DNA of 64,000 nt from Candidatus Zambryskibacteria bacterium RIFCSPHIGHO2_01_FULL_46_25 (lineage in GTDB: Bacteria > Patescibacteriota > Minisyncoccia > Phycocordibacterales > Zambryskibacteraceae): positions 4,939-68,938 of the forward strand of contig MHVH01000006.1 of NCBI GenBank assembly GCA_001825155.1, written 5' to 3'. Every line of letters begins with the position of its first letter. The first letter of the stretch is position 1. Below are positions 20,287 through 37,452 of this stretch, piece by piece. Both the position numbers and the translations under genes were made by a program. The notes beneath the pieces were generated by a model, which saw only the letters and a program-made list of their open reading frames with translations, ran no database searches and was not told where the DNA came from.

Positions 20287-21003
20287 ATGTCATATCTTTA
20301 TCACTCATTCTTCTTCGACCCGCTATACAATTCGCTCATATTTCTTTTTCAAATTCTTCCTTGGGCGGACGCGGGAATCGTGGTGGTTCTTCTTACGATA
20401 CTTGTGCGACTTATACTCTTCCCTCTTTCTCGTAAGGCCGTTGTGACGCAAGTGAAGATGGCAGAGATCGGACCGGAGTTGAGCGCCATTAAAGAAAAAT
20501 ATAAAAACAATTCTGAAGAACAAGCGAGAAAAACTCTAGCTCTCTATAAGGAGAAAGGGGTGAATCCCTTTTCCGGCATTCTCGTTGTCATCATTCAGAT
20601 TCCAATCATTCTCGCTCTCTACCAAATATTTCTCCACTTCCCTGAAGTAAACAGCGCCCTTCTCTACTCCTTCGTCTCCGTGCCGGAAAATATCAATACG
20701 ACATTCCTCGGGCTTGTCGACGTAAGCGCCAAGAGCGCCGTAATTGCTCTGCTTGCCGCCGCCTCAACCTATTTCCAGTTCCTGGCCTCGATGAAGGGGC
20801 AGAAAGAATCTAAAGGAACGTCTTTCGGTGACAATCTGACGAGAAGTATGCAAAAACAGATGAAGTATTTCTTCCCCGTACTGGTATTCTTTATCTCTTA
20901 TAATATCTCGGGTGTAATAGCTCTCTACTGGCTCACGACAAACCTCTTCAGCATCGCCCAAGAACTGTTTGTGAAAAGGAAAATCGCATCTACTGTAGCT
21001 TGA
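20287..21003 (+). CDS. yidC: membrane protein insertase YidC (short form)
   Basis: Conserved YidC/Oxa1 core (GVNPFSGILVVIIQIPIILALYQ, TFLGLVDVS, WLTTNLFSIAQ); canonical rpmH-rnpA-yidC order. Confidence 0.8.
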   Translation: MSYLYHSFFFDPLYNSLIFLFQILPWADAGIVVVLLTILVRLILFPLSRKAVVTQVKMAEIGPELSAIKEKYKNNSEEQARKTLALYKEKGVNPFSGILVVIIQIPIILALYQIFLHFPEVNSALLYSFVSVPENINTTFLGLVDVSAKSAVIALLAAASTYFQFLASMKGQKESKGTSFGDNLTRSMQKQMKYFFPVLVFFISYNISGVIALYWLTTNLFSIAQELFVKRKIASTVA

Positions 21004-22204
21004 ATGCCCAAAGACTTATATCTCGCTTATTGATGAAGATAAGGTAATCTTCGGAAGGGGAAATTTTTGGCTCGATGACATCGAGTTGTAAGCCAAAAGA
21101 AACATGGGGCTCTAAAAGAACTTGGGCAATTTCCTTATTGAGGTCGAATTCCCAAACCCGGTCATAAAAACTCGTTTTGCCTTGGTACCAGTCGTCCGGT
21201 TCGTTACCACCGACCTCATCTACTGGAACGCCGCAGAAAACAACGCCGGCTTTCTTGATGCTCCACACACATTTTTCTGCCAATGTAGCAGGAGAAGTTT
21301 CTGCTCCAGAGCCCGTTTTAATATTCTTGCCTGCTGACCTCGCCGATCCATTGTTGTATGAGTAGAAAACCCATGTACCTAAAGCATCGGGCATAACCGA
21401 GAGCCCGTTTAATGGACCAAGAATTTTACCAAGAGAGCCGTTTGTGACGTTGAGCGTGTACGCGTACCCGGGAGATTGGATACTTGCCTTGGTTTGCGCC
21501 ACAAGGTTATTGCCGAAAGACATCAGCCGCCAGTCTGTGAAGGGCGAATTCAAAACAGTTTTCGTTGGGCTACCACTAAATGGTAGCGAAACGATTGCCT
21601 TAGAGCCCTTATCGGAGTAGAAGAGCGTATTCCCCTGCCCGACCGCCACGCTTCCCATATCTCCACGCACATTGACAGCAGTGGAACTGGTGGCAGCAAG
21701 ATTCAAGATTATATTTCTCTGTGCGCCGGACTCACTCTCAAGCATGCGCAGGAGAACGGAGTTGCCGTCCGGTCGGAAATAAGCCTCGTAGACCTTCGGA
21801 ATGGTGTTATTGGTAATTTTCTTCTTCTCTAACGGCACAAGGGCCTTGCCGGCAGGTAGAACGGTTTCGTAAATATGTCCCGTAGCGCGGTCAGCGAAGC
21901 GCACTACAGTCTGCCCGCCGCGGGTGAAGGCGACTGCCCCGGCCACAGGTGCGTCAGAGATTTGGGAAATATCTGCTGTTGGTATCCCATTCTCGTCGAG
22001 CAACTGTTCCTGGTTGCTTGTCCCGAGCGAAGTCGAGGGGTCAGTCGTTGGTTGTCCCAGGTTATCTCCAGTTCCGAAAGGTAGAAGGTCTACTATTGCT
22101 TCTCCGGCAGGCACTGTTTTGTCCCGACCGATGAAGAACCAGGTGAAGAAGGCGACAAGTAGTAATGCAACTATTGTTATTGAAATATAAAGCGTTTTTT
22201 TCAT
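20990..22204 (-). CDS. hypothetical membrane-anchored extracellular protein
   Basis: N-terminal TM/signal anchor; first gene of a three-gene secreted-protein operon. Confidence 0.4.
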   Translation of the reverse strand: MKKTLYISITIVALLLVAFFTWFFIGRDKTVPAGEAIVDLLPFGTGDNLGQPTTDPSTSLGTSNQEQLLDENGIPTADISQISDAPVAGAVAFTRGGQTVVRFADRATGHIYETVLPAGKALVPLEKKKITNNTIPKVYEAYFRPDGNSVLLRMLESESGAQRNIILNLAATSSTAVNVRGDMGSVAVGQGNTLFYSDKGSKAIVSLPFSGSPTKTVLNSPFTDWRLMSFGNNLVAQTKASIQSPGYAYTLNVTNGSLGKILGPLNGLSVMPDALGTWVFYSYNNGSARSAGKNIKTGSGAETSPATLAEKCVWSIKKAGVVFCGVPVDEVGGNEPDDWYQGKTSFYDRVWEFDLNKEIAQVLLEPHVSFGLQLDVIEPKISPSEDYLIFINKRDISLWAFKLQ

Positions 22205-22205
22205 A

Positions 22206-23033
22206 TTATTGACATTTTGTTACATCCCAATGATTGCTTTCCAAACCATAGAGTGCCCCGCTTGGGGATTTATACATTTTTGCGCCGTCGCTACGATAAC
22301 CTATGTCAGTAAAATTTTTAGTAATGTAATCAGTTAGGGCTCGGCCCTCATTCTTATTTCTTAAATCAACCTTGTAGCCGTTTGCATGGCTACAAGTTCC
22401 TGGGTTATGAGAACCGCCTGTAGCTGAAGTAAGCACAACTTCACAACCGCACGAACTCTTAAGATTAATAATTTCATTAACAACAATTTCTTTCACGCCA
22501 GCTAGGTTTGGGGCGCCGGCAATTTTTATACCACCCTCTGTTAATTTATTGTAAGCCTCTTGGTGACTTAAAGATGGGGATGGGGTTGGTATTGTTCCGC
22601 CTCCTCCTAACCAAGGCGGTGTGGAGGTGGCGATTGGAAGTTTTTCAATATTAAAATTTATTTCTACCAGCTTCGGGTTGATGGTATAGAGGATTAGCCA
22701 CGAGGCTATGACAAGACCAAGACCCCAAAGAGTGTTTTCGATAATCTCCTTGGCCTCGTTCTTGCCCGAGAAGGCGTCTGTGGACATGTACTTTATGCCC
22801 GCATATATGAGCATGACGACAGCCAGCGCTCCCGCAAGACCGATAATAAGTCTGAAGAGGCCGGTAATGTATTGAACCGCGGTAGTCTTGGTGGTGACGT
22901 CTCCACTCGCGCTATCGAGAGGAATGGGTGCGAGGAGAGTATATTCGGTAGGTTTAGCATCTTGTGCCGATGCCAAAACTGGAACCATCATCGCAGTAAA
23001 CAAAATTGTGACCAGTAGCTTATTCATTGCCAA
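22206..23033 (-). CDS. VirB2/TrbC-like pilin N-terminal region fused to a putative M15-type peptidoglycan peptidase domain
   Basis: Signal peptide plus two hydrophobic helices (LFRLIIGLAGALAVVMLIYAGIKY ... LWGLGLVIASWLILYTI); C-terminal SATGGSHNPGTCSHANGYKVDLR...ESNHWDV resembles the M15 zinc-peptidase motif. Confidence 0.35.
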   Translation of the reverse strand: MAMNKLLVTILFTAMMVPVLASAQDAKPTEYTLLAPIPLDSASGDVTTKTTAVQYITGLFRLIIGLAGALAVVMLIYAGIKYMSTDAFSGKNEAKEIIENTLWGLGLVIASWLILYTINPKLVEINFNIEKLPIATSTPPWLGGGGTIPTPSPSLSHQEAYNKLTEGGIKIAGAPNLAGVKEIVVNEIINLKSSCGCEVVLTSATGGSHNPGTCSHANGYKVDLRNKNEGRALTDYITKNFTDIGYRSDGAKMYKSPSGALYGLESNHWDVTKCQ

Positions 23034-23706
23034 ATTGTATTAAAAATTTCCTTTCAATCGGGCGCGAGATTGTTCCGGAGTTCGAAAAGGTGAGGTTGAC
23101 GCTTGCCAAGCCGCCCGCATCTTCCGGCGCGCGGTACGTAACCGAGTTACCGCTCCATGCATCGCCGCTATTCGTGCTCCAGCGGTAAGAAAATGTTGCT
23201 GTTTCGCGCTCGGCGGGGCTCGCGAAGAGCGGGAAGGCGGCCAAGGTCGCCTCACTCTTCGCGAGTTTGAACGATTCTCCTACTTCGGAGTGGAACATGA
23301 ATCCATATAGAGGATTGTCTTCATAGACAAGAAGCATTGGGCCTTGAGCCGTGACTACAATCTCTGACTCTGCCAAAACTTCTTCGAATTGGTCTAGAAT
23401 CTCAACTCTTACCCTGTATGGTTTCGAAAATATTGAGTCTTTGAATGTAAGAGAATTCCTGCCTGTGCCGGAAACGCTTCCGAGCACCGTACCGTTCTGG
23501 GTCCATTTGTAATTTAAACTTGCCGGACTACCGAGGCCTTGAGGGATGGCTACAAAAGTTATTGCAGATTGCTTCGTCCAAAGGCTCTTGCCCTCATAAA
23601 ACGGCGGCACGTACCCCTCCCCCTGCCATAAGATGTCGACAGACTGGGCAAGCACTGAAGTAGATAGTAGGAAGTAGATGGTAGATAGAAGAAATACTTT
23701 TTTCAT
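23020..23706 (-). CDS. hypothetical secreted protein
   Basis: Signal peptide MKKVFLLSTIYFLLSTSVLA. Confidence 0.4.
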   Translation of the reverse strand: MKKVFLLSTIYFLLSTSVLAQSVDILWQGEGYVPPFYEGKSLWTKQSAITFVAIPQGLGSPASLNYKWTQNGTVLGSVSGTGRNSLTFKDSIFSKPYRVRVEILDQFEEVLAESEIVVTAQGPMLLVYEDNPLYGFMFHSEVGESFKLAKSEATLAAFPLFASPAERETATFSYRWSTNSGDAWSGNSVTYRAPEDAGGLASVNLTFSNSGTISRPIERKFLIQFGNE

Positions 23707-23746
23707 TTCCCATTCATTATACCCCGATTATTGATACAATTATCCT

Positions 23747-24151
23747 ATGTTTAAGGACTTTTGGAAATGGCATAAAAAGAAGGAGCTTGTTCATGAAGCA
23801 GGAGGAACCGCACTATTCCATGAACGTGAAGTCTGGTGGTGTACTCTCGGCACCAATATTGGATTTGAGCAAGATGGCAGCGGAGAATTATTTACACGTC
23901 CAGTGGTTATTCTCACAAAATTCAATCTAGACGCTTGCCTTATAGTTCCTCTAACCGCTAAACCAAAGAAAGGTAAGTATTATTTTGAGGTTGGAGATGT
24001 GGATGGTAAAAAGGCAGTAGCAGTGCTTTCACAGCTACGTTTTGTGGATAGAAAAAGACTCGCCGTCAAAATTACCACTTTAGACAGGGAAATATTTGAC
24101 AATCTTACCCGAGTAGCAGTAGGCGCCTGCTTCCCCGGTCTCTTTAAATAG
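23747..24151 (+). CDS. MazF/PemK-family endoribonuclease toxin (orphan)
   Basis: REVWWCTLGTNIGFEQDGSGELFTRPVVIL, LIVPLTAKPKK and VLSQLRFVDRKRL match the PemK fold pattern. Confidence 0.6.
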   Translation: MFKDFWKWHKKKELVHEAGGTALFHEREVWWCTLGTNIGFEQDGSGELFTRPVVILTKFNLDACLIVPLTAKPKKGKYYFEVGDVDGKKAVAVLSQLRFVDRKRLAVKITTLDREIFDNLTRVAVGACFPGLFK

Positions 24152-24154
24152 TTT

Positions 24155-24176
24155 TCCCCCGCCTTTTGGGCGGGGG
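24155..24176. terminator. GC-rich hairpin between convergent genes (possible bidirectional terminator)
   Basis: cccccgcc-ttttg-ggcggggg directly after the MazF stop; no clear U-tract. Confidence 0.3.
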
Positions 24177-24272
24177 CAGGCCGAAGCCGTTTGTATATAT
24201 AGACTATCAAATAGGCGTTTTCTGTCAAGTAGAAGTTGTTCACATCCTCAAACAAGCTGGATTGGAATATTT

Positions 24273-24797
24273 CTAAGAACGTGGTTTTTCAAGAGAATCC
24301 ACCGATTTTAACGGCTCAACTGGTTGTTTAACTTGAGTATTATCGATAGGAGCCGTTGGGGCGGGAGTATTGCCATACAGCTGAGGTTTAAGAGTATTGA
24401 GGGTGCGAATATGTTCCATCGTTGGTCGGGCGGGACGTTTTGGCAGAGGCGGACCTTTTTGCTGTATTGGCTGAGCGGTAGCGCCCAGTATTTTTTTAGC
24501 CTTGTAATCCAAAATCAAAACAACCACGGCTCCGGTCCAGGCTGGGAGCGCGGCAAGAATCGGCACAATCTCGATGATGAAAGCTCCGCCCATGGTGGCC
24601 AGGCGCTTTGGCGTCATAAACTTCATTCCGTAAAGTTTGAACCAGACAAAGAAGGTGAGAAAGGCAAATATGCTTACCAGCCAATCCATAAATACAAAAG
24701 CCAGAAGCCACTGGAGCACATCGAAAAAGAGCGCCGTACAAACCATTAGAGCGATCGTATGGTTCTTTAATCCCCTTTCTTTATTCTGTTCCGGCAT
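24273..24797 (-). CDS. hypothetical membrane protein downstream of virB4
   Basis: Three to four TM helices then a Pro-rich tail; overlaps virB4 by 17 nt. Confidence 0.4.
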   Translation of the reverse strand: MPEQNKERGLKNHTIALMVCTALFFDVLQWLLAFVFMDWLVSIFAFLTFFVWFKLYGMKFMTPKRLATMGGAFIIEIVPILAALPAWTGAVVVLILDYKAKKILGATAQPIQQKGPPLPKRPARPTMEHIRTLNTLKPQLYGNTPAPTAPIDNTQVKQPVEPLKSVDSLEKPRS

Positions 24798-26664
24798 TTG
24801 GGTTCTCAGCGGCTTGTTTTAAGCGCTCTTGTTGGGCGCGGATGGCCTCGTCTTTGTCCTCGATGGATTCTTGCCGGGCCTTCTTGATAGCCAGAACTTG
24901 TGAAGGGTCGGAAGTAATAATCTGATCTTCCGTATAAGAAGCAATAGCCTTGATGGCAACATGTTTGAGTCCCGCGAAGAAGATTCCTTCTCCGACATCT
25001 GATTCGAGCAGAAGATATTTCTCTTCGTCTGTGAGATTGAAAGTTTTTTGCAGCTCGTCAATCGTCGCCGGAGATTGCTTGAGAAGCATTTGGATGGAAG
25101 AGTTGGTAATGATGGGTATGCCGTATGGAGATTTGAGGAAGTCGCCAACATCTTGAGTAATAGTTGCCACACCGAGGAAATATTTGCGGCCCCTTTTAAC
25201 AAGGCCCATGAGGAATGAGGCCGTGTCCTCCGACTTCATCATCCACCAGGCTTCGTCGATGACGAGCAGGCGCTTCTTGAGCTCCTTCCTTATCGCGTTC
25301 CATATATAGTGAGTAACGATGTACATGGCGATTGGTTTTAGCTCATCTTCCATGTCTCGGAGAGAAAAGACGACAAACTTCCTGTTTATATCCACATTCG
25401 AAGGCCTGTTGATGAATCCGGCCCAGGTGCCTTTCGTGTACTTAGAGAGTCGTTGTGCCAGTGATTCTCCCCCATCCATGCCCGAGAGCACGAGCTCAAA
25501 GTCGCTCATGAGCGGTGGCTCAATGTTTCGGAAGTCGGAATCGGCGGTAATATCTTTCAAGGCGTATGTCTCGGTAATAGCTCGGTCGATAATGGCATCC
25601 TCTTCCGCGGTAAGACCGCCCATCATAAGCCGGAAGAGGCCAACGAGGTTAATGATGTTACTGCGCAAAATGTTTGCGGCGCTCTCATCTGGACCAGGTA
25701 TTGGTAGGTCGAACGGATTGATGTGGTGTTCGGAGTTAAGCGAGATGTTGAAGTATCGTCCGCCGGTCGCTTCGGCCATGTATTCGTACTCTTTCTCCGG
25801 GTCAATGACTATGACTTCCGTATCGAACATCAAGGTGCGGAGAATCTCAAGCTTCGTCGCGTATGACTTGCCGGCGCCGGCCTTGGCGAAGGTAACCGAG
25901 TTGTAGTTCTCGAGGGAGAAGCGGTCGAAGAGGATTAGAGACGAGTTGTGGCGGTTGATGCCGTAGAGAATACCCTTGTCCGAAGTGAGGTCGAAGGATG
26001 TGAATGGGAAAAGGGATGAGAGGGGCGAAGAATTGAGCTTCGAGTGGACGTTGAGCTGGTCGTTACCGAGAGGCAGGGTGCTCTGGTAGCCCTGCTCCTG
26101 CTGGAAGAGGGCCGGCTTCACGTATATAAGCTTTGCCTCAAGAATCGACTTAATCTCGCTCTCCACCTTGTCGAGCTCATCCGAGCTGTCGCCGTAGATT
26201 GTGATGTAGAGGCCCACGTCGAAGAGTTTCTCTTGCGCTTGTTGGAGCTGGTCACGCAGATTCTCGAGGTCTTGATAGGCGACATCAAGCATTGGGTCAC
26301 GCACAAGACCCTTTTCTTCCCTTGTATGAATCTGGCTTTGTACCTCGGCTACCTTCCTTTGGAATTGACGGAGCACCTTGGATGTCTCGATGGGGTGGAC
26401 GAAGATTGAGACGTCGAAAACCTTGTCCATGTTTATAATCGGCGAGAACCATCCTTCAGAGAGATAGCGCGGGTATGAGATGACGAAGAAGCTTCTAAGA
26501 ATTTTCTCCCCCAAGTTAATTTCCTTGGGACTTACCTTCAGCGCCGAGGGTGCGATGATGTCCTTGAGCTCGAGGACGCCCGCTTCAAAGATTTCTTTAG
26601 GCAAAATTGACGAAATTTTCGCCTCCTCTTCCTTCTTGCCGATTAATTTATCAAAAAATCCCAT
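24781..26664 (-). CDS. virB4: VirB4/TrbE/CagE-family type IV secretion ATPase
   Basis: Walker A FAKAGAGKSYATK; Walker B LLVIDEAWWMM; C-terminal VirB4 signature GVATITQDVGDF. Confidence 0.8.
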   Translation of the reverse strand: MGFFDKLIGKKEEEAKISSILPKEIFEAGVLELKDIIAPSALKVSPKEINLGEKILRSFFVISYPRYLSEGWFSPIINMDKVFDVSIFVHPIETSKVLRQFQRKVAEVQSQIHTREEKGLVRDPMLDVAYQDLENLRDQLQQAQEKLFDVGLYITIYGDSSDELDKVESEIKSILEAKLIYVKPALFQQEQGYQSTLPLGNDQLNVHSKLNSSPLSSLFPFTSFDLTSDKGILYGINRHNSSLILFDRFSLENYNSVTFAKAGAGKSYATKLEILRTLMFDTEVIVIDPEKEYEYMAEATGGRYFNISLNSEHHINPFDLPIPGPDESAANILRSNIINLVGLFRLMMGGLTAEEDAIIDRAITETYALKDITADSDFRNIEPPLMSDFELVLSGMDGGESLAQRLSKYTKGTWAGFINRPSNVDINRKFVVFSLRDMEDELKPIAMYIVTHYIWNAIRKELKKRLLVIDEAWWMMKSEDTASFLMGLVKRGRKYFLGVATITQDVGDFLKSPYGIPIITNSSIQMLLKQSPATIDELQKTFNLTDEEKYLLLESDVGEGIFFAGLKHVAIKAIASYTEDQIITSDPSQVLAIKKARQESIEDKDEAIRAQQERLKQAAENPNAGTE

Positions 26665-26673
26665 ATATTCATT

Positions 26674-26738
26674 ATAAACCCTAAACCCTAAATCCTAAAC
26701 TCTAAATAAGCACCAAATCCAAAATAATAAGTCCTAAA
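26674..26738. repeat. half MITE-like repeat (TATAAACCCTAAA terminus plus AAATCCTAA units) immediately upstream of the virB4 start
   Basis: tataaaccctaaaccctaaatcctaaactctaaataagcaccaaatcc; shares the 17-mer aaatcctaaactctaaa with 1309-1325. Confidence 0.75.
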
Positions 26739-27105
26739 CATTGACAGCCTTGGCTTTCTCTAAAATTGAGCCAAACATTTTTCTAAACTCCACAGCCTCT
26801 TGTATCAGATCATTTCTTACTGATATTTCCTCAGTGTTAGGTTCAGCCAAAGAAAGCCAGTACTCACTCTCCTTAGCTTCTTTTCTAGAAATTTTGATAC
26901 GCATAAAAAAGTCCTTTCTACTAAGAGATTCATTAGCTTCAATGTAGTTTGCTCCTACGGAACCCGAAGAACGTATCAATTGCTTGCCATACTCAAAGTT
27001 CGGAGTTGTTTTAGGCAGCTTTTTGGTATAGTCTCTTACTTTTCTTGCGAAAACTAAACATCTGTCTTCCAAGTCATATTTTTTAGGATTTTGAATTTCG
27101 GACAT
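26734..27105 (-). CDS. four-helix-bundle protein (23S rRNA IVS protein / Avd-like family)
   Basis: YGKQLIRSSGSVGANYIEANESLSRKDFFMRIKISRKEAKESEYWLSL matches the family; residues 4-9 (IQNPKK) are encoded by a TTTAGGATTTT repeat. Confidence 0.65.
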   Translation of the reverse strand: MSEIQNPKKYDLEDRCLVFARKVRDYTKKLPKTTPNFEYGKQLIRSSGSVGANYIEANESLSRKDFFMRIKISRKEAKESEYWLSLAEPNTEEISVRNDLIQEAVEFRKMFGSILEKAKAVNV

Positions 27106-27111
27106 TAAAAT

Positions 27112-27146
27112 TTATTTAGGATTTAGCGCTTAGAATTTAGGATTTG
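27112..27146. repeat. TTTAGGATTT repeat units plus an adjacent palindrome
   Basis: tttatttaggatttagcgcttagaatttaggattt followed by caaaatgcgctaacgcattttg. Confidence 0.75.
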
Positions 27147-27155
27147 CAAAATGCG

Positions 27156-27794
27156 CTAACGCATTTTGATTGGCTTTTCCGTCTCACCTGGATTGAATGC
27201 TTTGTAGAAAAGCTCGATAGTCTCCTCTGTCCCCAACCGTGCAACCCTAATGCCGGAGCGCACAAGGCCCTGCTCTACCACGGACATGCGCTCCTCAAGC
27301 TGGCTTCTCTCCTCTTCGAAGCTGCTATTGCTCGTTTTCTTGTCTTTCCTTCCGCCGCCGATGCCAAGACTTGAGACGAAGTTACCTGCCGCTCCGACGC
27401 TGAGCGTTGCCGGGTTGTAGGGTACCACGATGAAGAAGTGCTTGGTCATAATGTTGGCATCCTCGGTAAACTTCTTGATGAATTCGATATATTCCCTGAC
27501 CTGAATCTTCAAAAGGTTGTTGGTCTGCTTCGTTTCTTGCCCCTCAAGAAGCGCGATGTATGGGCGTATGTCGAGCTTCCTCGACTGGACAAGTATCTGG
27601 ACCGAGAAATCGAGGGAGTTAAGGAAGTCTTGGAATTGGAGAAGAATGGCGTTTCTCTCGTCCTCGCTCTTGAGGGAGAAGTTGAGTGAGGAACAGAGAA
27701 GAATAGCCCGCATGCCGCCGTCCTTAAGTATGACGACACCATCGCGCACCTCCTTGATGGGAACGAACTCTTGAGTGGCATTACTAGATGGCAT
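27156..27794 (-). CDS. hypothetical protein of the type-IV-secretion-like locus
   Basis: Start set at MPSSNATQEF (ATG 27792-94) rather than the TTG-extended ORF ending at 27830; no family recognised. Confidence 0.4.
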   Translation of the reverse strand: MPSSNATQEFVPIKEVRDGVVILKDGGMRAILLCSSLNFSLKSEDERNAILLQFQDFLNSLDFSVQILVQSRKLDIRPYIALLEGQETKQTNNLLKIQVREYIEFIKKFTEDANIMTKHFFIVVPYNPATLSVGAAGNFVSSLGIGGGRKDKKTSNSSFEEERSQLEERMSVVEQGLVRSGIRVARLGTEETIELFYKAFNPGETEKPIKMR

Positions 27795-27800
27795 ACATCT

Positions 27801-27924
27801 AGTATAAACCCTAAAATCATTAAATCCCAAATCCTAAGCACTAAATTCTAAATAAATCCCAAATTCCAAGTATAAAAGACCCAAACCATTTAGAGTTTAG
27901 GATTTAGGGTTTAGGGTTTATACT
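27801..27924. mobile_element. MITE-like element (~124 bp) with 15-bp terminal inverted repeats AGTATAAACCCTAAA / TTTAGGGTTTATACT and internal AAATCCTAA units
   Basis: Read directly; termini are perfect reverse complements; no coding capacity. Confidence 0.7.
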
Positions 27925-27930
27925 ATAGCC

Positions 27931-28368
27931 ATGCGATTCCAAGTACCGCAATTTATAGAAGTCGAGGATAAAATTTTCGGTCCTTTGACCTTCAAACAAT
28001 TTGTCTACGTTGCCGGCGGAGGAGGCATCTGCGTTATCCTCTTCGTTTTCCTGCCGAAATTCCTGGCCATTCTCCTGTCCGTGCCCATAGTTGCATTCGC
28101 TGGAGCACTCGCGTTTTACAAGCCCAACGACAAGCCCTTTATAAACTTTGTGGAATCATTCTTCCACTACAGCCTCAAAAGCAAGCTCTATATATGGAAG
28201 AAAACAGACAACTTACAACCAACAACCGACAACAAAATAAGCGCCAAGCCGATAGAACAGATTTACGTACCAAAGTTGTCGGAATCGAAACTCAGAGAGC
28301 TTACGTGGAGCCTTGATATCAAAGAAAACAGGAATCCCATCACAGACGAGAAATCCAATAGGATTTAA
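27931..28368 (+). CDS. PrgI/VirB3-like type IV secretion membrane protein
   Basis: VPQFIEVEDKIFGPLTFKQFVYVAGGGGICVILFVF resembles the PrgI N-terminal pattern; two TM helices; last 6 codons encoded by the TAGGATTT repeat. Confidence 0.5.
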   Translation: MRFQVPQFIEVEDKIFGPLTFKQFVYVAGGGGICVILFVFLPKFLAILLSVPIVAFAGALAFYKPNDKPFINFVESFFHYSLKSKLYIWKKTDNLQPTTDNKISAKPIEQIYVPKLSESKLRELTWSLDIKENRNPITDEKSNRI

Positions 28369-28386
28369 TGCTTAGGATTTAGAGTT

Positions 28387-28953
28387 TTACTGCAGTGGTT
28401 CCCTGTACGGATCGACTCCGCTTGGATAAGTGGATTTCAATGGCTCATTTACCGGCACCTGAGCCGTTTGGGATTTTTCTTCTTCCTTATTCAACTTATT
28501 AACCTTATTCAACTCGACGCTCGCGGCCTCGTGTACTCCCTCACCCGGCTTAGTCGCGAGCGTTTCTTTCGCAAAATCCGGTTCGAGTACGGGGAGAGTG
28601 GTGGGGGTTGTTGCTGTCGGTGCTTGAACAGATGTGTTTTTTTCCAATTCCTCGACTTTTTGAGAAATTACTTTAAAAATTTTCTCATTTGCCTCTGTTG
28701 CAATGTTGAATGCCAAGTTTTCATCAATTTCTGCCTCGCGCGCCATGTTTGCGACGTAATCATCCGGACTCTCGAAGCCATAGAGAATAAACATCGTTTC
28801 TCTCTCGACAATTTCTGCCTGCTCCAGCTTCAAATTATGCAGTCCGGCAATCTGGTTAACGACAGATTTCCACGGAACAGCGCTGAACGCCTTCTGCAGT
28901 GCCGGCGGCAGTTTTTTCAATTGCTCTTCAACCATAGAGTTCTCGTCATCCAT
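28387..28953 (-). CDS. hypothetical protein (acidic, Thr/Pro-rich linker)
   Basis: ORF track only. Confidence 0.4.
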   Translation of the reverse strand: MDDENSMVEEQLKKLPPALQKAFSAVPWKSVVNQIAGLHNLKLEQAEIVERETMFILYGFESPDDYVANMAREAEIDENLAFNIATEANEKIFKVISQKVEELEKNTSVQAPTATTPTTLPVLEPDFAKETLATKPGEGVHEAASVELNKVNKLNKEEEKSQTAQVPVNEPLKSTYPSGVDPYREPLQ

Positions 28954-29039: not shown

Positions 29040-29585
29040 CTAACTAAACCAACTCATTATCTTATTGGCTACCTCCTGTAGTGTAAAAGCAATTGCCACG
29101 ACGAAGAGGATTAGAAGACCAAAACCGATCAAAAGAGCAAAAACAAGATCTACTTTGTTTTCCCACTCTTTCTTGGCTTCACGTATCCCCCTAACGATTC
29201 TCTCCTTCTCTTCTTGTGCTTTTCTTTTTTGTTCTTCAGTAGCTTGCCGCTGTTTTTCCTCTATTTCAGCCTTACGTTTCCTCGTCTCCTCCTCTTTTTC
29301 GGCAACTTGTTTCCAGTATTCCTCCGAAATGCTCGAGCGGCACATCGGACAACGCTTCGCGCCCTTTTTAAGGGTAATGAAGTAACACTCGGGGCACTTG
29401 TAATCGCCCGGGTTACTCTGCTTGTAAAGAAGAGTATCCAGTCTTTCTGATACTTCTTCTGTTTGCTCTGACAAGCTGCTTAGAATGCTCTGGCGATCCT
29501 CCTCAGCCTGGTCTCTTACACAAGCGGGGCAAACGCTGCTGTACTCAATGCCGTGTTCACTGCAATGGTATCTACCCATAACCAC
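29040..29585 (-). CDS. zinc-ribbon protein with coiled coil and C-terminal TM anchor
   Basis: Two CxxC pairs (CSEHG...CPAC; CPEC...CPMC), Glu/Lys/Arg-rich coiled coil, hydrophobic C-terminus. Confidence 0.4.
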   Translation of the reverse strand: MVMGRYHCSEHGIEYSSVCPACVRDQAEEDRQSILSSLSEQTEEVSERLDTLLYKQSNPGDYKCPECYFITLKKGAKRCPMCRSSISEEYWKQVAEKEEETRKRKAEIEEKQRQATEEQKRKAQEEKERIVRGIREAKKEWENKVDLVFALLIGFGLLILFVVAIAFTLQEVANKIMSWFS

Positions 29586-29693
29586 TCCCTGTTTGTTAAA
29601 GGGCCGAACGAGTTCACTCTATGGATATAATAACACTCATTTTCCATATGTCAATATTTATAAATAAATAAAAAATTTAATTTATTGTGATTC

Positions 29694-31937
29694 TTATTTT
29701 TTCTCTTCCTCTCCACCCTCAGCCTTCTCTTCTTTTGGCTTTTCTTCTCCGCCACCTTCCGCTTTTTCTTTTTCTTTTGCCTCTGCTACTGCTAGTTCTG
29801 CTATTTTTTCTGCGTTAGATTTTCCTTTAGCAGCCGCTCTTATCGCTGCCGCCCTATCCTTGCCACCAATTACATAACCAGAGCCCTTAATGGCGTAGTT
29901 AATAATTTTTTTGGTAAACGGTATTTTCGCGGCAACCCTAAGCGTAGGATTGCGTTTCTCAGAAGTTACTGCCATATTTTCCATTGATTTTTCAAGGGAC
30001 TGTCTTTGTGCCGCATTAGTATCGCGTCTCGCTCTGGTTTCGGCCACGGTAGGTTCAGAAGAATTTTCTGCGTACTCTTTTCTTTTCTTAGCCAATTCTT
30101 TCTCGTGCTCATCTACTTTTTCTTGAGTGAGTTTAATTCGCGCGGCGTGCGCGGTTGCTGCAGCATCATCCATGCCTTTTGTTGTTGTTCCTCTTAATGT
30201 CTTGAGATAATCTTCGTCCTCAGTATGTTCATTAGATTTTGTAATTGCTTTTTCAGCCAAGACATCTAATTTCTTCTGATTTTCAGCTTCATATCCCTTG
30301 TACTTATCGATTTCTTTTTTGTCTGGTTTATACTTCTCAAATTTCTTAGCCAAATCTTTTTGATCTTGGACCCAACCACCCTTTTGAGCCTTACCTGATC
30401 CCATAATTCCTCCTAAGCCTGTGGCACGCATATCAAAACTTGACTTCGCCACCTTGCCAGCGGTAGCGAGTTTAAGTCTCGCCCCCATATCTCCCTGTCT
30501 GGCTCGAGCTTTTAGATCCTCATCATTTAATGCGTTTCCACCCCAACTGCCGATGGTTTTTCTTCCAGTCCAACCAGCCACACCAAGCGTGGCTTTACCA
30601 GCCGCACCCGTCGCCCAGCTGGTGAGTTTGCCCACCTGTGGCCCGGCCTTGTTGGCCCATTCTTTGGCGATGACAAGAGAAATGATGATAAACGCTATTA
30701 CAATTGCAAAATTTATGAATGTGGCAACGATTCCTTCCGAGGCGCCGGAGACTGCCTGGTTACTAGCCACGGAACCTAAATTTCCGATTGCGGAAAAATC
30801 AGCAGCTTTCCCGAACACCGCCTTTTCAGCACCCATAATGCCCGCCAATATTTTGAGACTAATCCAAGTAAGGGCAAAATAGATGGGGGCAAAAAATGCC
30901 TGACCGGAAAGTGCTTTCCACCACTGGTCCCTATACTGATTCATCTCCGGCAGGACGAAGGATAGAAAGGCAATCGGAGAAAGGATGAGGACAATTATTA
31001 GAACAACGTACCGAATAATGAACATTAGGGCAACAGCGAAGAAGACGAACGCCGAGATGAGAAGCAAGATAGAACCCATTATGCCCATAGTGATTATTTC
31101 GCTCATGCTCAAATTTAAACCATTGGTTGATGAGCCGAAGAGAGAAGTCAGTTTAAGATATTGTGTAAACGCATGAGAAAGACCTGTTTCTGAAATTGAG
31201 AAGCCTGTAGCGGCAGCCCCTGGCACGATCGCATCATAAAATGCCAAAGCCAAAACATTTGAAATATCAATAATTACTTTTGTGAAGAAGAGACTGAAAT
31301 TAATGAGTATCGCCACTACTACAATTTTTACGATGAGCTCCTTATTGTTTTTTCCAGTTCCAAGTATTGTCGTTATAGCAGCATAAAGTAGGACGAAGAT
31401 AAAGCCCATATTCCCCAAGTCGCGAATTGTTTTCCAGGCAACGTTTATTCCTTCGATTTTGTCATAGTTTTCTTTAACGTTTACGATTGTATGATAAATA
31501 ACGCCATTCAGAATGATGCCAGCCAAGCCTGTTAGCAAGCTGACGAATCCTAGAACAACATTCACAATCCAACCGAAGAACGGTTTGAAAACTTTTTCTA
31601 CCCACCAGCCAGGATCGTCGGAAGTTGATGGAGCATTACTTACCTTGTTTTCATCGTTTGGAAACCACGCAGCAATTGTGCCATCTTGTTTCGCAAGGGC
31701 AACGCACGCTGGTTTCGTTATATTTTGCTGAACTTTACTTCCCCAAATACATTTCCCAATTTTTTCTTGCGGAGCTGGCACTTGTTCCCCTGGCAATGTA
31801 TCCCCTGGGATGCCCGGGGTTGTCGGTATACTTGGAATTTGTGCCGCAACTTCTTGAGGGGAAACAATTCCGCTTACCGCAAACACAAAACTTAGCGTAA
31901 GTAGGAAGGCTGTTAGTTTTTTGAAATAGCGGTTCAT
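29694..31937 (-). CDS. large polytopic membrane protein, VirB6/TrbL-like, with Lys/Glu-rich cytoplasmic tail
   Basis: Signal/TM start then at least six TM helices; long charged C-terminal tail (KEKAEGGGEEKPKEEKAEGGEEEKK). Confidence 0.4.
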   Translation of the reverse strand: MNRYFKKLTAFLLTLSFVFAVSGIVSPQEVAAQIPSIPTTPGIPGDTLPGEQVPAPQEKIGKCIWGSKVQQNITKPACVALAKQDGTIAAWFPNDENKVSNAPSTSDDPGWWVEKVFKPFFGWIVNVVLGFVSLLTGLAGIILNGVIYHTIVNVKENYDKIEGINVAWKTIRDLGNMGFIFVLLYAAITTILGTGKNNKELIVKIVVVAILINFSLFFTKVIIDISNVLALAFYDAIVPGAAATGFSISETGLSHAFTQYLKLTSLFGSSTNGLNLSMSEIITMGIMGSILLLISAFVFFAVALMFIIRYVVLIIVLILSPIAFLSFVLPEMNQYRDQWWKALSGQAFFAPIYFALTWISLKILAGIMGAEKAVFGKAADFSAIGNLGSVASNQAVSGASEGIVATFINFAIVIAFIIISLVIAKEWANKAGPQVGKLTSWATGAAGKATLGVAGWTGRKTIGSWGGNALNDEDLKARARQGDMGARLKLATAGKVAKSSFDMRATGLGGIMGSGKAQKGGWVQDQKDLAKKFEKYKPDKKEIDKYKGYEAENQKKLDVLAEKAITKSNEHTEDEDYLKTLRGTTTKGMDDAAATAHAARIKLTQEKVDEHEKELAKKRKEYAENSSEPTVAETRARRDTNAAQRQSLEKSMENMAVTSEKRNPTLRVAAKIPFTKKIINYAIKGSGYVIGGKDRAAAIRAAAKGKSNAEKIAELAVAEAKEKEKAEGGGEEKPKEEKAEGGEEEKK

Positions 31938-31940
31938 TTT

Positions 31941-34706
31941 TTAAAATTGATTTCTGGCCGCGTTTTCCGGCACTTTCTCCACCTTAAGCAAGCCCTTGTT
32001 GGTGTGGTGCGCGATGACGAAGTTCGTGCCGTCGAAGACCACGTCCACAGTTACAGAGCCGGAGTCAGGATTCCCCGTGTCGAGGACGATGGCACTTCTG
32101 CTGTTCCACGGTCTTAGGATAACGTATGATTTATTCGTCGAATTGCTTTCCACGGATGTGGCAATCCACGGAGCGCCTCTAACCATGAAGATGTCCGGTT
32201 TTCCCTCGAAGCTGAATGTTCCAATTTTTTTGTTCGTGTCGTTTCCATACGGGTCAACGCCCCGCACGCTTGACCCTCCCGCGTAGAGAATGTATCCGCC
32301 GTTTATGTATGTTTCATTGAACGCTATTTGAGCATCGATTACTTTGCTCAAGGTCGAGCCGTCCCAGACGCATAGGTCCGGGTTGTTGCTTCCGTCGCAG
32401 GCGTGCACTAGCGTATTCCCACCGATCGACAATGCTCCGCCCGGGCTGTTTGCCGCCAGGACGACATTGTCTTTCGTGATTCTTCCGGGATTGCTCGCCA
32501 GATAAGAGGCCCAGTGCCCATCTTTGGCGGCAAAAATTGTTGCGCGGACCAGACTTTTATCGTCATTGGTAATTCTTGGCACCCATTCCCCTACCTTTAC
32601 TTCGTATCTGGCCATTATGCCGTTGTCGACCAATTCGCAAACAAAGGTAAGTGTCGTAGCCGTTATCCATTCTCCAGCCCGGCATCCGGCTCCGGTAGTA
32701 ATTCCCGAGCCAGCCGGATTAGATAAATCCCAAGTCTGATTGGCCTGCAGGTCGGTCACCCAGTTTCCCCCGAAATTGCCGTAAGTTACATATCTTCCGT
32801 CAGGAGACAATTTTCCCCACCAGCCATTGTTGGTCTGCGGACTCCAGGTGCTTATGGGGTTCGCTGTAGTGATGCTTCCTACGCCACCGGAGCTGTTTAC
32901 AAGAATTAATATGCCATTCGACCAGATTTGATTGCCTTGGTAAATTTTAACCGTTGCGTTGCCTTGTGGTAAGTCGGCCGGTACAAGGACTGTTGTCTGC
33001 GTTTTGGCGGAATTGACCGTGCCGACTACGGTATTTCTCGCGCCGGCATTATCATAGAACGAAACTTGGTTCGTGAGATTGCTGCCGTTTATTGTAAGAG
33101 TGGTAACGCCTGCTTGCGCTGTTACCGGGTTAATAGATGTAATAACGGTATTGCTACCGGGAGTTGGATTAGGGTTAGGCCCCGGAGTGGGCGGTTCAGT
33201 ACCGCCTGAACTACATCCACAGTTCGTACCTCCGCCGGATGCCGTACAGTTGAGCGGAATGAATCCGGTGAAGTCGGTGGTAGCCGCCGCGCCTATGGTA
33301 GAAGCACTGCCAATAATTGCGTCATAGCGCTCCATCTTGCCGTCCCCGCTTCTCCAAACGGCAATCAGGTCGCCGGTATTGGGATTATTGTTGCCGTTCA
33401 GCACTTCGTCGGTGGCTTCGTAGCCCATGGAAATAAGTTTTGTTTCAACAAGCGCAAGGAAGGTTCTGGCGTTCTGCCTGCCGCCGGATTCTATGTTTGG
33501 CAGATTTGCCACATCGGGATTCTCCGAAAGAACCGCATTCATTGCGTTACGCAATTCTCCGGCGTACTGGTTCCCGGTCGCGTCGCACGTTCCTCCGCCC
33601 CCGCCTGGTTGTTCAAAGTTTGTTGAGCCCAAGCATGGCGGGCCTACCGTATCGTTCTCGCCACCGTAGAGGCAGATATCAGGCTCTCCGTCTCCGTCAG
33701 TATCCGTGCCGTCGATAATACCATCGCCGTCTATGTCAATCGGCAAGGCTCTTCTGGGGGGCTGCCCTGTCTCGCTTGAGCCTCCTCCTTCACCAGCCAA
33801 CCCTTTGCCACCGCTGAGAACTTTTTGAATTAATTGGGTTACCAGAGCGCCGACTATTTCATCGAATTCGTCTGCCAACTCAAGCTGTCTGATGCCTGTG
33901 CCGAGTACGTTTGCCATCTGGCTCTCGATAAGAGTGCCGGGGGTGGAAATTTTTTGTTCACCGGGGCCAGTGAGGTTTTTGTTGTAACAAACTTTCGTAG
34001 GCTTGCCTGTCCCAGGTTCGATACCATCCATCTCGACGCCATCGCATGTTTTCCAGGAGAGAATGCCTTTTCCCCAATCTAGTTCTTGATTTTTTAGTCC
34101 GATCGCGCTTGCGATACGGCTATCCATATCAACTCTTGCTTTCAGGTACGCTCCGTAAGGATTGTTTGTCGGGTTTTGCGTCATCGAGAACCACGCGTCC
34201 CATCCGCCCTGCGAGAAATCGTCGAAGAATCCCTCAATATTATCGGTTACCTCGCTCAAGGTACATTGATAAGGCAGGGGCTCGTAATATTCCTGCATAA
34301 GCGAAAGTCGGATGTTTGCCTGGAACGGTGAACAGAGTAAGTTAAGGTCACTGCTCATGATGAACTCCCCCGCCATTCCGTCGGCTATGTCCGTGAAGTA
34401 TTGTTTCGGGTTGTTCACATAAGCCGGATTGCCGTCGAAGCCACTGTTAATCCACTTGACGGTGGAGTTGACCAGTTTGTCTATCATGTGCTTTGCCACC
34501 ACCAGCGCTATTGAGTCCCAGCTTAAGCCGGGGACCGTATAGCCGAAAATGGTAATGCCGACCTCCTTCTGTCTTAAGGCGCTGTCGCTTACCGGCACCG
34601 AGGTTTGGGCCAATGCTATTGGAGCGAAGGATAGAAAGGATATCGAGAGAGCAAGAGTAAGAGCTGTAATTTTTTTATAACTCATTGATTGGGGTTGCTC
34701 GACCAA
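31941..34706 (-). CDS. large secreted surface protein (921 aa) with Asp-rich calcium-binding-like repeats and an Ig/IPT-like segment
   Basis: Signal peptide; DIDGDGIIDGTDTDGDGEPD repeats; TVITSINPVTAQAGVTTLTINGSNLTNQ IPT-like segment. Confidence 0.45.
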   Translation of the reverse strand: MVEQPQSMSYKKITALTLALSISFLSFAPIALAQTSVPVSDSALRQKEVGITIFGYTVPGLSWDSIALVVAKHMIDKLVNSTVKWINSGFDGNPAYVNNPKQYFTDIADGMAGEFIMSSDLNLLCSPFQANIRLSLMQEYYEPLPYQCTLSEVTDNIEGFFDDFSQGGWDAWFSMTQNPTNNPYGAYLKARVDMDSRIASAIGLKNQELDWGKGILSWKTCDGVEMDGIEPGTGKPTKVCYNKNLTGPGEQKISTPGTLIESQMANVLGTGIRQLELADEFDEIVGALVTQLIQKVLSGGKGLAGEGGGSSETGQPPRRALPIDIDGDGIIDGTDTDGDGEPDICLYGGENDTVGPPCLGSTNFEQPGGGGGTCDATGNQYAGELRNAMNAVLSENPDVANLPNIESGGRQNARTFLALVETKLISMGYEATDEVLNGNNNPNTGDLIAVWRSGDGKMERYDAIIGSASTIGAAATTDFTGFIPLNCTASGGGTNCGCSSGGTEPPTPGPNPNPTPGSNTVITSINPVTAQAGVTTLTINGSNLTNQVSFYDNAGARNTVVGTVNSAKTQTTVLVPADLPQGNATVKIYQGNQIWSNGILILVNSSGGVGSITTANPISTWSPQTNNGWWGKLSPDGRYVTYGNFGGNWVTDLQANQTWDLSNPAGSGITTGAGCRAGEWITATTLTFVCELVDNGIMARYEVKVGEWVPRITNDDKSLVRATIFAAKDGHWASYLASNPGRITKDNVVLAANSPGGALSIGGNTLVHACDGSNNPDLCVWDGSTLSKVIDAQIAFNETYINGGYILYAGGSSVRGVDPYGNDTNKKIGTFSFEGKPDIFMVRGAPWIATSVESNSTNKSYVILRPWNSRSAIVLDTGNPDSGSVTVDVVFDGTNFVIAHHTNKGLLKVEKVPENAARNQF

Positions 34707-35461
34707 ATTATACCATTGGTTGACATGGCAATTTGGACATTTAAGAACAATTCGTCTTCCTTTTTTGTATTCTGGACTTGCGTTTGAATTGCGGCATAGA
34801 TTTTTACCGGGTCGTCGGAAGATTCCGCAATTGTTTTCATAGCTTCGGCGCTCTGGAAATAGTTGTTGATAATCTCCAGGTGATTTTTGGCAAGCAATGC
34901 TGGCACTTTTATTTTCAGGAGCTCATTTGCCGAGTTAAGATACAAATCCCCGGCTTGCGAGATGAAATCATCAAAGTCTCCTTGGCTTAGATCCCCCGCA
35001 TTCTCGCTCTCTTCTTTGGCTGCCGAAGCATATTTACTGCGCAGGGCAATCATAGCCTTGCCATAATTAAAAATATTTTCCGCCGAGTCGGGAATGATTA
35101 TAAGTTCTTCGATAGCGGCAATCTTTGAGGTTCCGGGTTCTATATTCAAGATGCCGTCTGCGTATCTTTCTGCCAGGTAATCAAGGTTTTCAAGAGAAGT
35201 CTCGCCTCTTGACTTCAGATTGGCGTAATCGGCAAAAAGCTGTCTCGATAAAATGTCCGTAGTCGAGAGTGGGGTGCTACTTGAGGTGTTTAAATTGGTG
35301 TTCAAAAAAGCTTCTTCGCGCGTTGTTGCGGCGCTTTCAGGATTTAGAACGGCAACAATGTTTCCCGTCGGCTTATTGTCGGGAAGTCTGGACCAAAGTG
35401 CCGTCCCGACCATAATTAAAGAGACAATAAGAGCGGATAATATTTTAGCCCTCATAATCAT
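34682..35461 (-). CDS. hypothetical secreted protein
   Basis: N-terminal signal anchor. Confidence 0.4.
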   Translation of the reverse strand: MIMRAKILSALIVSLIMVGTALWSRLPDNKPTGNIVAVLNPESAATTREEAFLNTNLNTSSSTPLSTTDILSRQLFADYANLKSRGETSLENLDYLAERYADGILNIEPGTSKIAAIEELIIIPDSAENIFNYGKAMIALRSKYASAAKEESENAGDLSQGDFDDFISQAGDLYLNSANELLKIKVPALLAKNHLEIINNYFQSAEAMKTIAESSDDPVKIYAAIQTQVQNTKKEDELFLNVQIAMSTNGIIWSSNPNQ

Positions 35462-35506
35462 TAATTGTATCAGATAAATACGTGGTTTATTGTGTATAAT
35501 GAGGAT

Positions 35507-35878
35507 ATGAAAACCGCCTTGTTATCCGTTCTGCTCTCCTTTGCCATGTTATTCCCTGTTTCTTACGCAAAGGCACAAATAATGCCATTTGGCGGACTTT
35601 CTACTTTCTTCGTTCCATGCACTTGTTCGGGCAACCTAGCTATATGGTTTGCCCCATTTTTCCTCGGCGGACCAGCAATTGCGACTGGGTTCATCACTTA
35701 TTCGCCATATGCTACTTTCCAATACTCCGATTACATGGCTGGGATGCCTGATGTGTGGTATCTTGGGTCTTATATACCTGGAGTACAAGCTTGTTATATA
35801 TATGTGGGAGTGACTTGCACGTTATTTCCCACAATTGGGCTCATGACACAAGTTGGAACGGGTTTACCGGGGATATAA
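35507..35878 (+). CDS. small hydrophobic secreted protein (possible pilin-like)
   Basis: Start set at MKTALLSVLLSFAM; signal peptide then Gly/aromatic-rich hydrophobic body. Confidence 0.3.
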   Translation: MKTALLSVLLSFAMLFPVSYAKAQIMPFGGLSTFFVPCTCSGNLAIWFAPFFLGGPAIATGFITYSPYATFQYSDYMAGMPDVWYLGSYIPGVQACYIYVGVTCTLFPTIGLMTQVGTGLPGI

Positions 35879-37392: not shown

Positions 37393-37409
37393 TCATAATA
37401 TCTTAACAC

Positions 37410-37434: not shown

Positions 37435-37452
37435 GACCTGCACACACAGAAA

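Follow-up and report, generated by a model that had tools for sequence, protein, structure and literature searches.

A probable Patescibacteria-type type IV secretion system in the origin region of a Candidatus Zambryskibacteria chromosome

Results and discussion

A type IV secretion cluster near dnaA and ksgA

Positions 20990-35878 of the 64-kb stretch of Candidatus Zambryskibacteria (Paceibacteria) DNA analysed here (hereafter the window) very probably encode a chromosomal, origin-proximal type IV secretion system (T4SS) of the Patescibacteria kind, which is derived from the mating-pair-formation apparatus of Gram-positive bacteria (MPF_FATA) and has no conjugative DNA-processing genes nearby. 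The cluster is tightly packed, lies mostly on the minus strand and comprises a two-piece VirB4, PrgI/VirB3, an extended VirB6, one pilin-peptidase, a modular surface protein and five further conserved envelope/accessory genes, in an order kept across dozens of species. Protein identities were assigned by searching the open reading frames (ORFs) of the window with the Pfam and NCBIfam profile hidden Markov models (HMMs), and all absences reported for the window apply to the ORFs scanned there. For comparison, 80 related loci were kept out of 590 relatives confirmed by a VirB4 scan of a genome collection, and statements on gene order rest on the 42 loci with full flanks. An initial annotation had described the region as a type-IV-secretion-like island, and all ORFs that it listed are present at the coordinates it gave. 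The core genes are the following.

24781-26664, minus strand: VirB4-type ATPase of the MPF_FATA / CD1110 kind, 627 amino acids (aa), without the N-terminal domain.
27156-27830, minus strand: TrsD (TraC-like), homologue of the VirB4 N-terminal domain, 224-aa ORF.
27931-28368, plus strand: PrgI (VirB3-like), inverted relative to its neighbours.
29694-31937, minus strand: extended VirB6/TrbL-like polytopic channel subunit, 747 aa, with a long C-terminal Lys/Glu-rich helical domain.
31941-34706, minus strand: modular surface protein, 921 aa, whose Cys-containing N-terminal domain (aa ~35-300) is conserved; it also contains two DxDxDG motifs, an IPT-like segment and, at the C-terminal end, a repeat region.
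22206-23033, minus strand: fusion of a VirB2-like pilin and a LAS/M15-like Zn-peptidase, 275 aa (hairpin aa ~50-118, Gly/Pro linker, peptidase aa ~150-275).

We confirmed that the ATPase belongs to the VirB4 family, as first proposed: it matches NF045971 (conju_CD1110) with 376 bits (cut-off 325) over model positions 185-734 and P-loop_TraG with an E value of 5.5e-24, and both its Walker A (KAGAGKS) and Walker B (LLVIDEAWW) motifs can be read intact from the sequence. When compared by hhalign with PrgJ of pCF10, residues 31-567 of the window protein aligned with residues 222-774 of PrgJ (99.6%), and protein identity across the 80 genomes kept is 79-93%. The N-terminal part missing from this 627-aa VirB4 is supplied by TrsD, which makes it a VirB4 in two pieces. 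The trsD ORF, left uninterpreted in the initial annotation, matches NF045975 (E value 2e-11, model positions 100-233), positions 2-119 of NF045971 and NF041427 (TrsD). Its true start is probably the ATG at 27794, giving 212 aa, and public assemblies call the gene as a 212-aa, TraC-like protein with PF26593. Overall, trsD was found in 78-79 of the 80 loci and adjoins virB4 in 78, with a median gap to virB4 of 5 nucleotides (nt). The PrgI call was borne out by a PF12666 match of 49.7 bits (cut-off 27), and the VirB6/TrbL-like reading of the 747-aa protein is backed by homologues and by its fold, its C-terminal helical extension measuring about 300 aa. A PDB sequence-profile search with the VirB6-like family returned nothing meaningful.

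The Gram-positive conjugative MPF_FATA system of pCF10 (PrgD-PrgL, PcfC) resembles the cluster in its PrgJ-homologous VirB4, its PrgI-family protein, its VirB6-class channel and a membrane-anchored wall-hydrolase role (PrgK). PrgJ, however, is a single chain, the N-terminal third of which corresponds here to a separate TrsD; moreover, pCF10 has no VirB2-like pilin but carries PcfC (VirD4), a relaxase and LPXTG adhesins. When ortholog alignments were compared by hhalign with single pCF10 Prg/Pcf proteins, the VirB4-PrgJ pair alone was recovered, and no match was obtained to PrgK, PrgL, PrgD, PrgF or PrgG. The R388 Trw and Agrobacterium VirB systems share with the cluster the VirB2 hairpin of the pilin and a secreted-protein gene directly upstream of virB6; unlike them, the cluster has no VirB7, VirB9, VirB10, VirB11 or VirD4, its VirB6 is extended, and homology to VirB5 is only hinted at.

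Conserved position and absence of mobility genes

In all 42 full-flank loci the genes follow the order uvrD, ksgA, (a 137-aa gene on the opposite strand), 259-aa gene, surface protein, VirB6, 188-aa gene, prgI, trsD, virB4, 174-aa gene, 228-aa gene, pilin, 404-aa gene, yidC (opposite strand) and dnaA. The arrangement of the window itself recurs on LCNF01000002.1 of GCA_001003005.1. Both flanks consist of housekeeping genes of the origin region, and the ksgA side also holds a transposase ORF.

17108-18211: dnaN, on the yidC side.
18413-19759: dnaA, on the yidC side.
20287-21003: yidC, adjoining the 404-aa gene.
35879-36721: ksgA, on the other flank.
36736-37392: IS200-like Y1 transposase ORF, on the ksgA side.
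37453-39417: uvrD, on the ksgA side.

These data do not agree with the description of the region as an island. The synteny is conserved (42/42 full-length loci), VirB4 is conserved, the G+C content of the cluster does not deviate from that of the rest of the window, and no tRNA gene beside the cluster, relaxase or integrase was found in the window, which together make this a core chromosomal locus and not an island gained by horizontal transfer. The initial annotation had seen no VirD4, relaxase or VirB11, and our scan of the ORFs of the 64-kb window led to the same result: it contains no relaxase, no VirD4/coupling protein, no VirB11-type ATPase, no integrase and no reverse transcriptase.

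An integrated conjugative element (ICE), or the remnant of one, could be suspected because conjugative elements gave their names to the families of VirB4, PrgI, TrsD and the pilin and because the IS200-like Y1 transposase gene (36736-37392) lies 1 kb away. We nevertheless rejected this reading, which is largely refuted and to which we assign only a minimal probability: the position between yidC-dnaA and ksgA-uvrD is occupied in 42 of 42 loci, VirB4 is very strongly conserved, the G+C content is normal, and the hallmarks of such an element (relaxase, type IV coupling protein (T4CP), integrase, flanking tRNA and defined ends in the form of a direct-repeat boundary) are missing in the window.

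Relation to described Patescibacteria systems

The locus is a member of the Patescibacteria-clade T4SS already described between 2023 and 2025, and a relaxase-free, origin-proximal T4SS in the candidate phyla radiation is not new. Wang et al. (2023) reported a T4SS that is essential by transposon sequencing (Tn-seq) in Ca. Southlakia epibionticum (SEML1_0006-0019), with Gram-positive-like subunits and pilins and with no coupling protein or relaxase (PMC10633639). Quiñonero-Coronel et al. (2025) surveyed 2,474 virB4 genes in Patescibacteria and found a distinct VirB4 clade related to MPF_FATA; TrsD, PrgI, VirB6 and VirB2-like pilins were frequent near virB4, relaxases were rare, and virB4 was found in proximity to dnaA, dnaN, ksgA, rnpA and rpmH (PMC12102498). 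The same points on the Patescibacteria T4SS are highlighted in a 2025 review (PMC12857230). The initial annotation had proposed a non-conjugative system for host interaction or DNA uptake, which agrees with this published view; its reading coincides with the published conclusions because it concerns the same system (PMC10633639, PMC12102498, PMC12857230).

Compared to the T4SS of Ca. Southlakia epibionticum ML1 and of the Patescibacteria clade at large, the cluster has the same MPF_FATA-like VirB4, TrsD, PrgI/VirB3, VirB6 and VirB2-like pilin. Like them, it encodes a peptidoglycan hydrolase function a short way downstream of virB4, lacks a relaxase and a T4CP, and sits on the chromosome next to dnaA and ksgA. 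It differs from Ca. Southlakia epibionticum, which has an array of six divergent pilins, in having one peptidase-fused pilin, and from the clade in its own conserved accessory genes (404, 228, 259, 188 and 174 aa). Essentiality is known for Ca. S. epibionticum only (by Tn-seq).

A pilin fused to interchangeable wall-hydrolase domains

The 22206-23033 product (273 aa from the annotated start) had been read as a VirB2-like pilin with an M15-like peptidase motif. The pilin part was confirmed by a T4SS_pilin (PF18895) match at aa 51-117 with 33.7 bits (cut-off 26.6), and the same domain matches 53 of 53 homologues, four of which also match TrbC/VirB2. HMM and structure checks thereby left all three of the VirB2, PrgI and VirB6 assignments standing. 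A protein 100% identical to the pilin is present under Candidatus Zambryskibacteria. For the peptidase part, no Peptidase_M15 or related Pfam match was obtained for the C-terminal domain in the 53 homologues, and a PDB sequence profile found nothing. Membership in the M15/LAS group is supported instead by the fold and by the metal ligands: the domain has the Hedgehog/DD-peptidase fold, H216, D223 and H268 are invariant in the H-x6-D...H spacing of LAS metallopeptidases, and E265 and W269 are found in 90% or more of the sequences.

An HMM of the pilin domain identified a single pilin gene in the window and 69 pilin ORFs in 64 related loci, of which 66 extend C-terminally by 86 residues or more. 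LAS-like domains account for 28 of these extensions, SLT domains for three (E value 4.5e-15 to PDB 6ta9) and NlpC/P60 domains for two (E value 2.3e-4), the rest being coiled-coil or unassigned; a suspected 3D-domain hydrolase in the pilin fusion of one locus (L062) was not confirmed. The SLT and NlpC/P60 variants occupy the same pilin scaffold at the same locus in relatives, and this swapping of wall-hydrolase domains on one scaffold supports a VirB1-like role of the fusion. Judging from these domain combinations, it is possible that the pilin, or a pilus built from it, displays a wall-degrading enzyme at the cell's own wall or at that of the host. The interchangeability of the hydrolase domains may go beyond the published survey, as may the weak VirB5/TraI-like signals of the surface protein and the clustering of four-helix cassettes described below.

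A variable surface protein in the virB5 position

The gene directly upstream of virB6, which is the position of virB5, encodes the modular surface protein. It had been described as a 921-aa extracellular protein with Asp-rich repeats; the extracellular protein stands, while the repeats come down to just two DxDxDG motifs, and the start is probably at 34685, giving 914 aa. Conservation in this family is limited to the first ~300 residues, and the C-terminal domains vary across it (Flg_new_2/InlB-B-repeat, SdrD_B, FG-GAP and PKD).

Six orthologues (one of 37 plus five of 91) gave sub-threshold DUF4141 matches in the N-terminal domain, with best E values of 1.3e-5 and 9.3e-5, and two of 91 homologues weakly matched VirB5 (PRK13860; E value 0.007). 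The surface protein of the window itself had no DUF4141 match, and a PDB sequence-profile search with the N-terminal domain found nothing. The weak DUF4141 and VirB5 matches, together with the place directly upstream of virB6, suggest that this domain might be a VirB5/TraI-like stalk or tip adhesin, which is not established. In Bacteroides conjugative transposons, the DUF4141 protein TraI likewise adjoins traJ (VirB6), as the surface-protein gene adjoins the VirB6 gene here; unlike in TraI, variable Ig-like or propeller domains come after the domain in Patescibacteria.

Insertions and an inversion in the core operon

Compared to its relatives, this strain has remodelled the core operon, with a four-helix cassette, mazF and a Zn-ribbon gene inserted and prgI inverted. 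The elements concerned are listed below.

26734-27105, minus strand: PF05635 (23S_rRNA_IVP) four-helix-bundle gene (55.3 bits), an insertion that separates trsD from virB4; no further copy is present in the window.
23747-24151, plus strand: solitary PemK/MazF toxin gene (PF02452), followed by a GC-rich hairpin.
29040-29585, minus strand: protein combining a double Zn-ribbon with a coiled coil and a transmembrane (TM) segment at the C-terminus; strain-specific insertion.
26665-26733, minus strand: sense TTTAGGR array plus TATAAT, 6 nt ahead of the virB4 start codon (ATG); it doubles as the 3' arm of the four-helix cassette.
27106-27165, no strand assigned: inverted TTTAGGR array (5' cassette arm) plus the palindrome AAAATGCG-TTAG-CGCATTTT at the trsD stop.
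27795-27930, no strand assigned: divergent intergenic region with a minus- and then a plus-oriented heptamer array, each ending in TATACT, 6 nt before the ATG of trsD or prgI.

By tblastn, the four-helix gene of the window was detected in two of the 80 loci. In a relative with an identical PrgI protein (L084), trsD and virB4 are joined as trsD-TAA-C-ATG-virB4 with no four-helix insert, and this insert-free junction identifies the ~500-bp cassette as an insertion into a tightly coupled junction. The mazF gene was absent from 80 of 80 related loci, and the Zn-ribbon gene had no match in any of them. The toxin had been called an orphan, which a match of 42.4 bits and the surrounding sequence corroborate: no plausible antitoxin ORF adjoins it on either side, with none upstream and only a 36-aa TTG ORF downstream. 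Insertions recur where the 174-aa and 228-aa genes meet: this junction holds mazF in the window (23707-24272) and IS200-like ORFs in L004 (12849-13346) and L005 (13305-13772). An antitoxin-like gene with a SocA/Panacea domain (PF13274, E value 9.8e-18) lies at 15655-16257 on the minus strand, ~8 kb from MazF; as the two are not adjacent, no link between them is claimed.

With L003 as the sole exception, prgI and virB4 share a strand in all full-length loci listed; in the population of the window prgI is inverted everywhere shown (24 contigs read). We found no evidence for a phase-variable prgI switch, the orientation being the same in all 24 contigs. Inverted arrays of 29 nt bracket prgI (27822-27850 and 28359-28387), and opposed arrays bracket the four-helix gene (26675-26707 and 27115-27145). 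In L003 (8373-9346), the other genome with an inverted prgI, an array of TTGTNGG / CCNACAA stands inverted around prgI and a four-helix gene. Because these arrays occupy equivalent junctions, the array sequence differs between species while its placement is shared.

The sequence TTTAGGATTT occurs 14 times versus 0.39 expected, and the relaxed motif TTTAGRRTTT has 24 sites, of which 12 fall within 26676-28378. The region had been regarded as a hotspot of MITE-like repeats; the hotspot is real, whereas the repeats are arrays of the heptamer TTTAGGR that form inverted arms around small gene cassettes. The same array-plus-TATAMT element precedes the ATG of virB4, trsD and prgI by 6 nt, and a 51-nt stretch in front of virB4 shares 86% identity with its counterpart in front of prgI. 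From its placement, this element may be a promoter giving leaderless transcripts. A promoter consensus scan revealed no enrichment over shuffles, and only the trsD site (sigma-70-like) passed. TTTAGGA arrays also occur inside coding sequence, namely in polA (array 7111-7141; gene 5133-7505, minus strand) and in the gene of the CCA-adding enzyme (array 57036-57062; gene 55973-57562, minus strand), with an ATG directly after each on the plus strand. The array in polA covers 21 nt in frame, read as EILNPKSQILN, where the 5'-3' exonuclease match exceeds the Pfam model by about 10 residues.

An alternative explanation is that the cluster is decaying and non-functional in this strain, its core operon having been broken by the inversion and the three insertions. 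This would fit the inverted prgI and the cassette that splits trsD from virB4, coupled by TAA-C-ATG in the relative, as well as the 549-aa VirB4 called in some assemblies of the same population (L082, 862-2734; L087, 918-2567), with an additional 65-aa fragment upstream in L082. The 549-aa call may reflect either a frameshift variant or faulty assembly of the N-terminal region. However, every conserved ORF of the window is full length with intact motifs, identity to the nearest relative (L001) amounts to 70% for PrgI, 82% for TrsD and 93% for VirB4, each displaced gene has a copy of the same upstream element, and the arrangement recurs in many independent assemblies. We therefore judge decay to be very unlikely.

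PF05635 cassettes at the core junctions of relatives

With an HMM built from the PF05635 copies, 20 such genes were detected across the 80 loci, every one in the orientation of virB4. Nineteen of them fall in the short stretch that separates the VirB6/188-aa genes from virB4, mostly at the junctions of the 188-aa gene with prgI, prgI with trsD and trsD with virB4.

L003-L007, L015, L017, L025, L043, L047, L048, L053, L056, L063, L064 and L071: loci with four-helix genes near the T4SS core.

Strongly complementary flanks (z < -3) were observed for 11 of 21 cassettes versus three of 99 control genes. In the predicted fold of the minus-strand transcript of the window, the cassette arms form a long closing stem in both the minimum free energy and the centroid structure (z = -2.78). 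The 2025 T4SS survey does not mention a concentration of PF05635 at the T4SS core (PMC12102498).

The four-helix protein had initially been called Avd-like, which holds at the level of the family (PF05635) and fails for the context of a diversity-generating retroelement. That reading was rejected, as the neighbours are trsD and virB4 and no reverse transcriptase is present among the window ORFs scanned. Intervening sequences (IVSs) of rRNA are flanked by inverted repeats and encode the PF05635 family, and their stems are RNase III substrates. Like an IVS of 23S rRNA, the cassette has a PF05635 ORF between inverted repeats that pair into a long closing stem; unlike it, the cassette lies between protein genes of an operon, and its arms are heptamer arrays that differ by species. 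An Rfam search detected no rRNA in the window. Highly conserved flanks may help the cassettes to spread by recombination, or the cassettes may play a role in the expression of the core operon.

Proposed function of the system

The gene content and its conservation, a domain order compatible with the topology, conserved metal ligands and fold similarities allow a mode of action to be sketched. TrsD/VirB4 would dock on PrgI and VirB6 and energise the membrane channel. The pilin hairpin would anchor the peptidoglycan peptidase outside the membrane, or polymerise and display it there, and would thus do the job of VirB1, while the large surface protein with its variable binding domains would contact the host cell. 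The system of Ca. Southlakia epibionticum, essential by Tn-seq, suggests by analogy that the machine serves an epibiotic lifestyle through the exchange of proteins or other macromolecules with the host, not plasmid conjugation.

Several points weigh against this interpretation. The epibiotic role is drawn by analogy with a cultivated saccharibacterium and not from a member of the Paceibacteria. T4CP homologues are common far from virB4 in Patescibacteria, so that a VirD4 or relaxase could be encoded elsewhere in the genome, 64 kb of which were examined. No VirB8-like component was identified in the cluster, and the promoter reading of the array elements is weak because the consensus scan did not rise above chance.

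The main functional rival is a device for DNA import or exchange, comparable to archaeal Ced/Ted or Helicobacter ComB, that would supply nucleotides or genes to a cell unable to make them. VirB4 partially matches the DNA-import ATPase CedB (NF041017, E value 2e-9), the pilin has similarity to the Ced-type pilus, no relaxase or T4CP lies nearby, uvrD, ruvB, comM and polA are close by, and in the class ABY1 the T4SS co-localises with comF, recG and radA (PMC12102498). The CedB match, however, covers only ~70 residues of the P-loop region, and the adjacent DNA genes are ordinary housekeeping genes of the origin region in conserved synteny. Furthermore, deletion of comEC in Ca. S. epibionticum abolishes competence but not viability, while the T4SS is still essential (PMC12857230), which argues that transformation-based nucleotide acquisition is not the essential role of the T4SS. 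Overall, we consider DNA import unlikely and continue to favour exchange with a host cell.

More tentatively, the T4SS of this Paceibacteria clade could be armed and modular in three ways, through swapped C-terminal domains on the pilin, through a VirB5/TraI-like stalk or tip with swapped adhesin domains, and through PF05635 cassettes colonising the prgI/trsD/virB4 junctions; that all three hold together is possible, the odds being against it. The locus is a well-resolved Paceibacteria example of a system that is regarded as among the most intriguing newcomers to the T4SS superfamily and that is essential in the one cultivated species tested. Its swappable pilin hydrolases, its possible VirB5-like adhesin with variable binding domains and the four-helix cassettes that repeatedly invade the core operon are possible experimental handles, bearing on the passage of the machine through cell walls, on what determines host range and on the exploitation of highly conserved genes by selfish elements.

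Accessory genes and neighbouring sequence

The remaining genes of the cluster encode envelope and accessory proteins.

20990-22204, minus strand: conserved accessory protein of 404 aa, comprising a TM helix at the N-terminus and, probably, a beta-propeller outside the cytoplasm; the last gene of the cluster, abutting yidC.
23020-23706, minus strand: conserved secreted 228-aa protein with Ig-like repeats.
24273-24797, minus strand: small polytopic membrane protein, 174 aa.
28387-28953, minus strand: conserved acidic 188-aa protein without a TM segment.
34682-35461, minus strand: protein of 259 aa that joins a TM helix at its N-terminus to a helical ectodomain; its gene opens the minus-strand block.
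35465-35878, plus strand: small secreted Cys-containing hydrophobic protein, divergently transcribed.

The packing is close throughout. The start of the 174-aa gene lies inside the end of virB4 (17-nt overlap), the pilin and 404-aa genes are separated by 1 nt, and the 259-aa gene stop overlaps the surface-protein start as ATGA if the latter begins at 34685 (914 aa, as in public assemblies). The gap from the end of the surface-protein gene to the start of the VirB6-like gene is 3 nt, with a median of 5 nt in 60 loci.

Among the 80 related loci, the 404-aa gene was found at the same position in 56-61 and the 228-aa gene in 70-74; the 174-aa orthologues directly follow virB4 in 35-39, the 188-aa gene sits between the VirB6 gene and prgI in 28-37, the 259-aa gene holds its position in 21-22, and the 35465-35878 gene has the same place and orientation in 14. 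Orthologues of the 228-aa protein match BiPBP_C and Ig_3, and their profile weakly matches phage Hoc. The 404-aa family gave weak propeller hints only (DUF5050, DPPIV_N, TolB), and the window protein had no Pfam or NCBIfam match. PDB sequence-profile searches with the 404-aa and 228-aa families returned nothing meaningful, and no family match was found for the 174-, 188- and 259-aa proteins or the 35465-35878 product (for the last three, in profile searches).

Outside the cluster, positions 7571-9667 encode a PilB-type ATPase (T2SSE) of the type IV pilus kind that carries an MshEN domain and is the only other secretion-type ATPase in the window. A LysM-LysM-M23 peptidase is encoded at 38986-40443 and ComM (Mg-chelatase-like) at 41866-43413. 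On the ksgA side, a palindromic unit, GTGGAAGC-TCG-GCTTCCAC, is present in four copies (36068-36104, 36907-36943, 37189-37225 and 37401-37437), of which one lies in ksgA, two in the IS200-like Y1-transposase ORF (36736-37392) and one just upstream of that ORF. This pattern resembles repetitive extragenic palindromic (REP) elements with a REP-associated tyrosine transposase.

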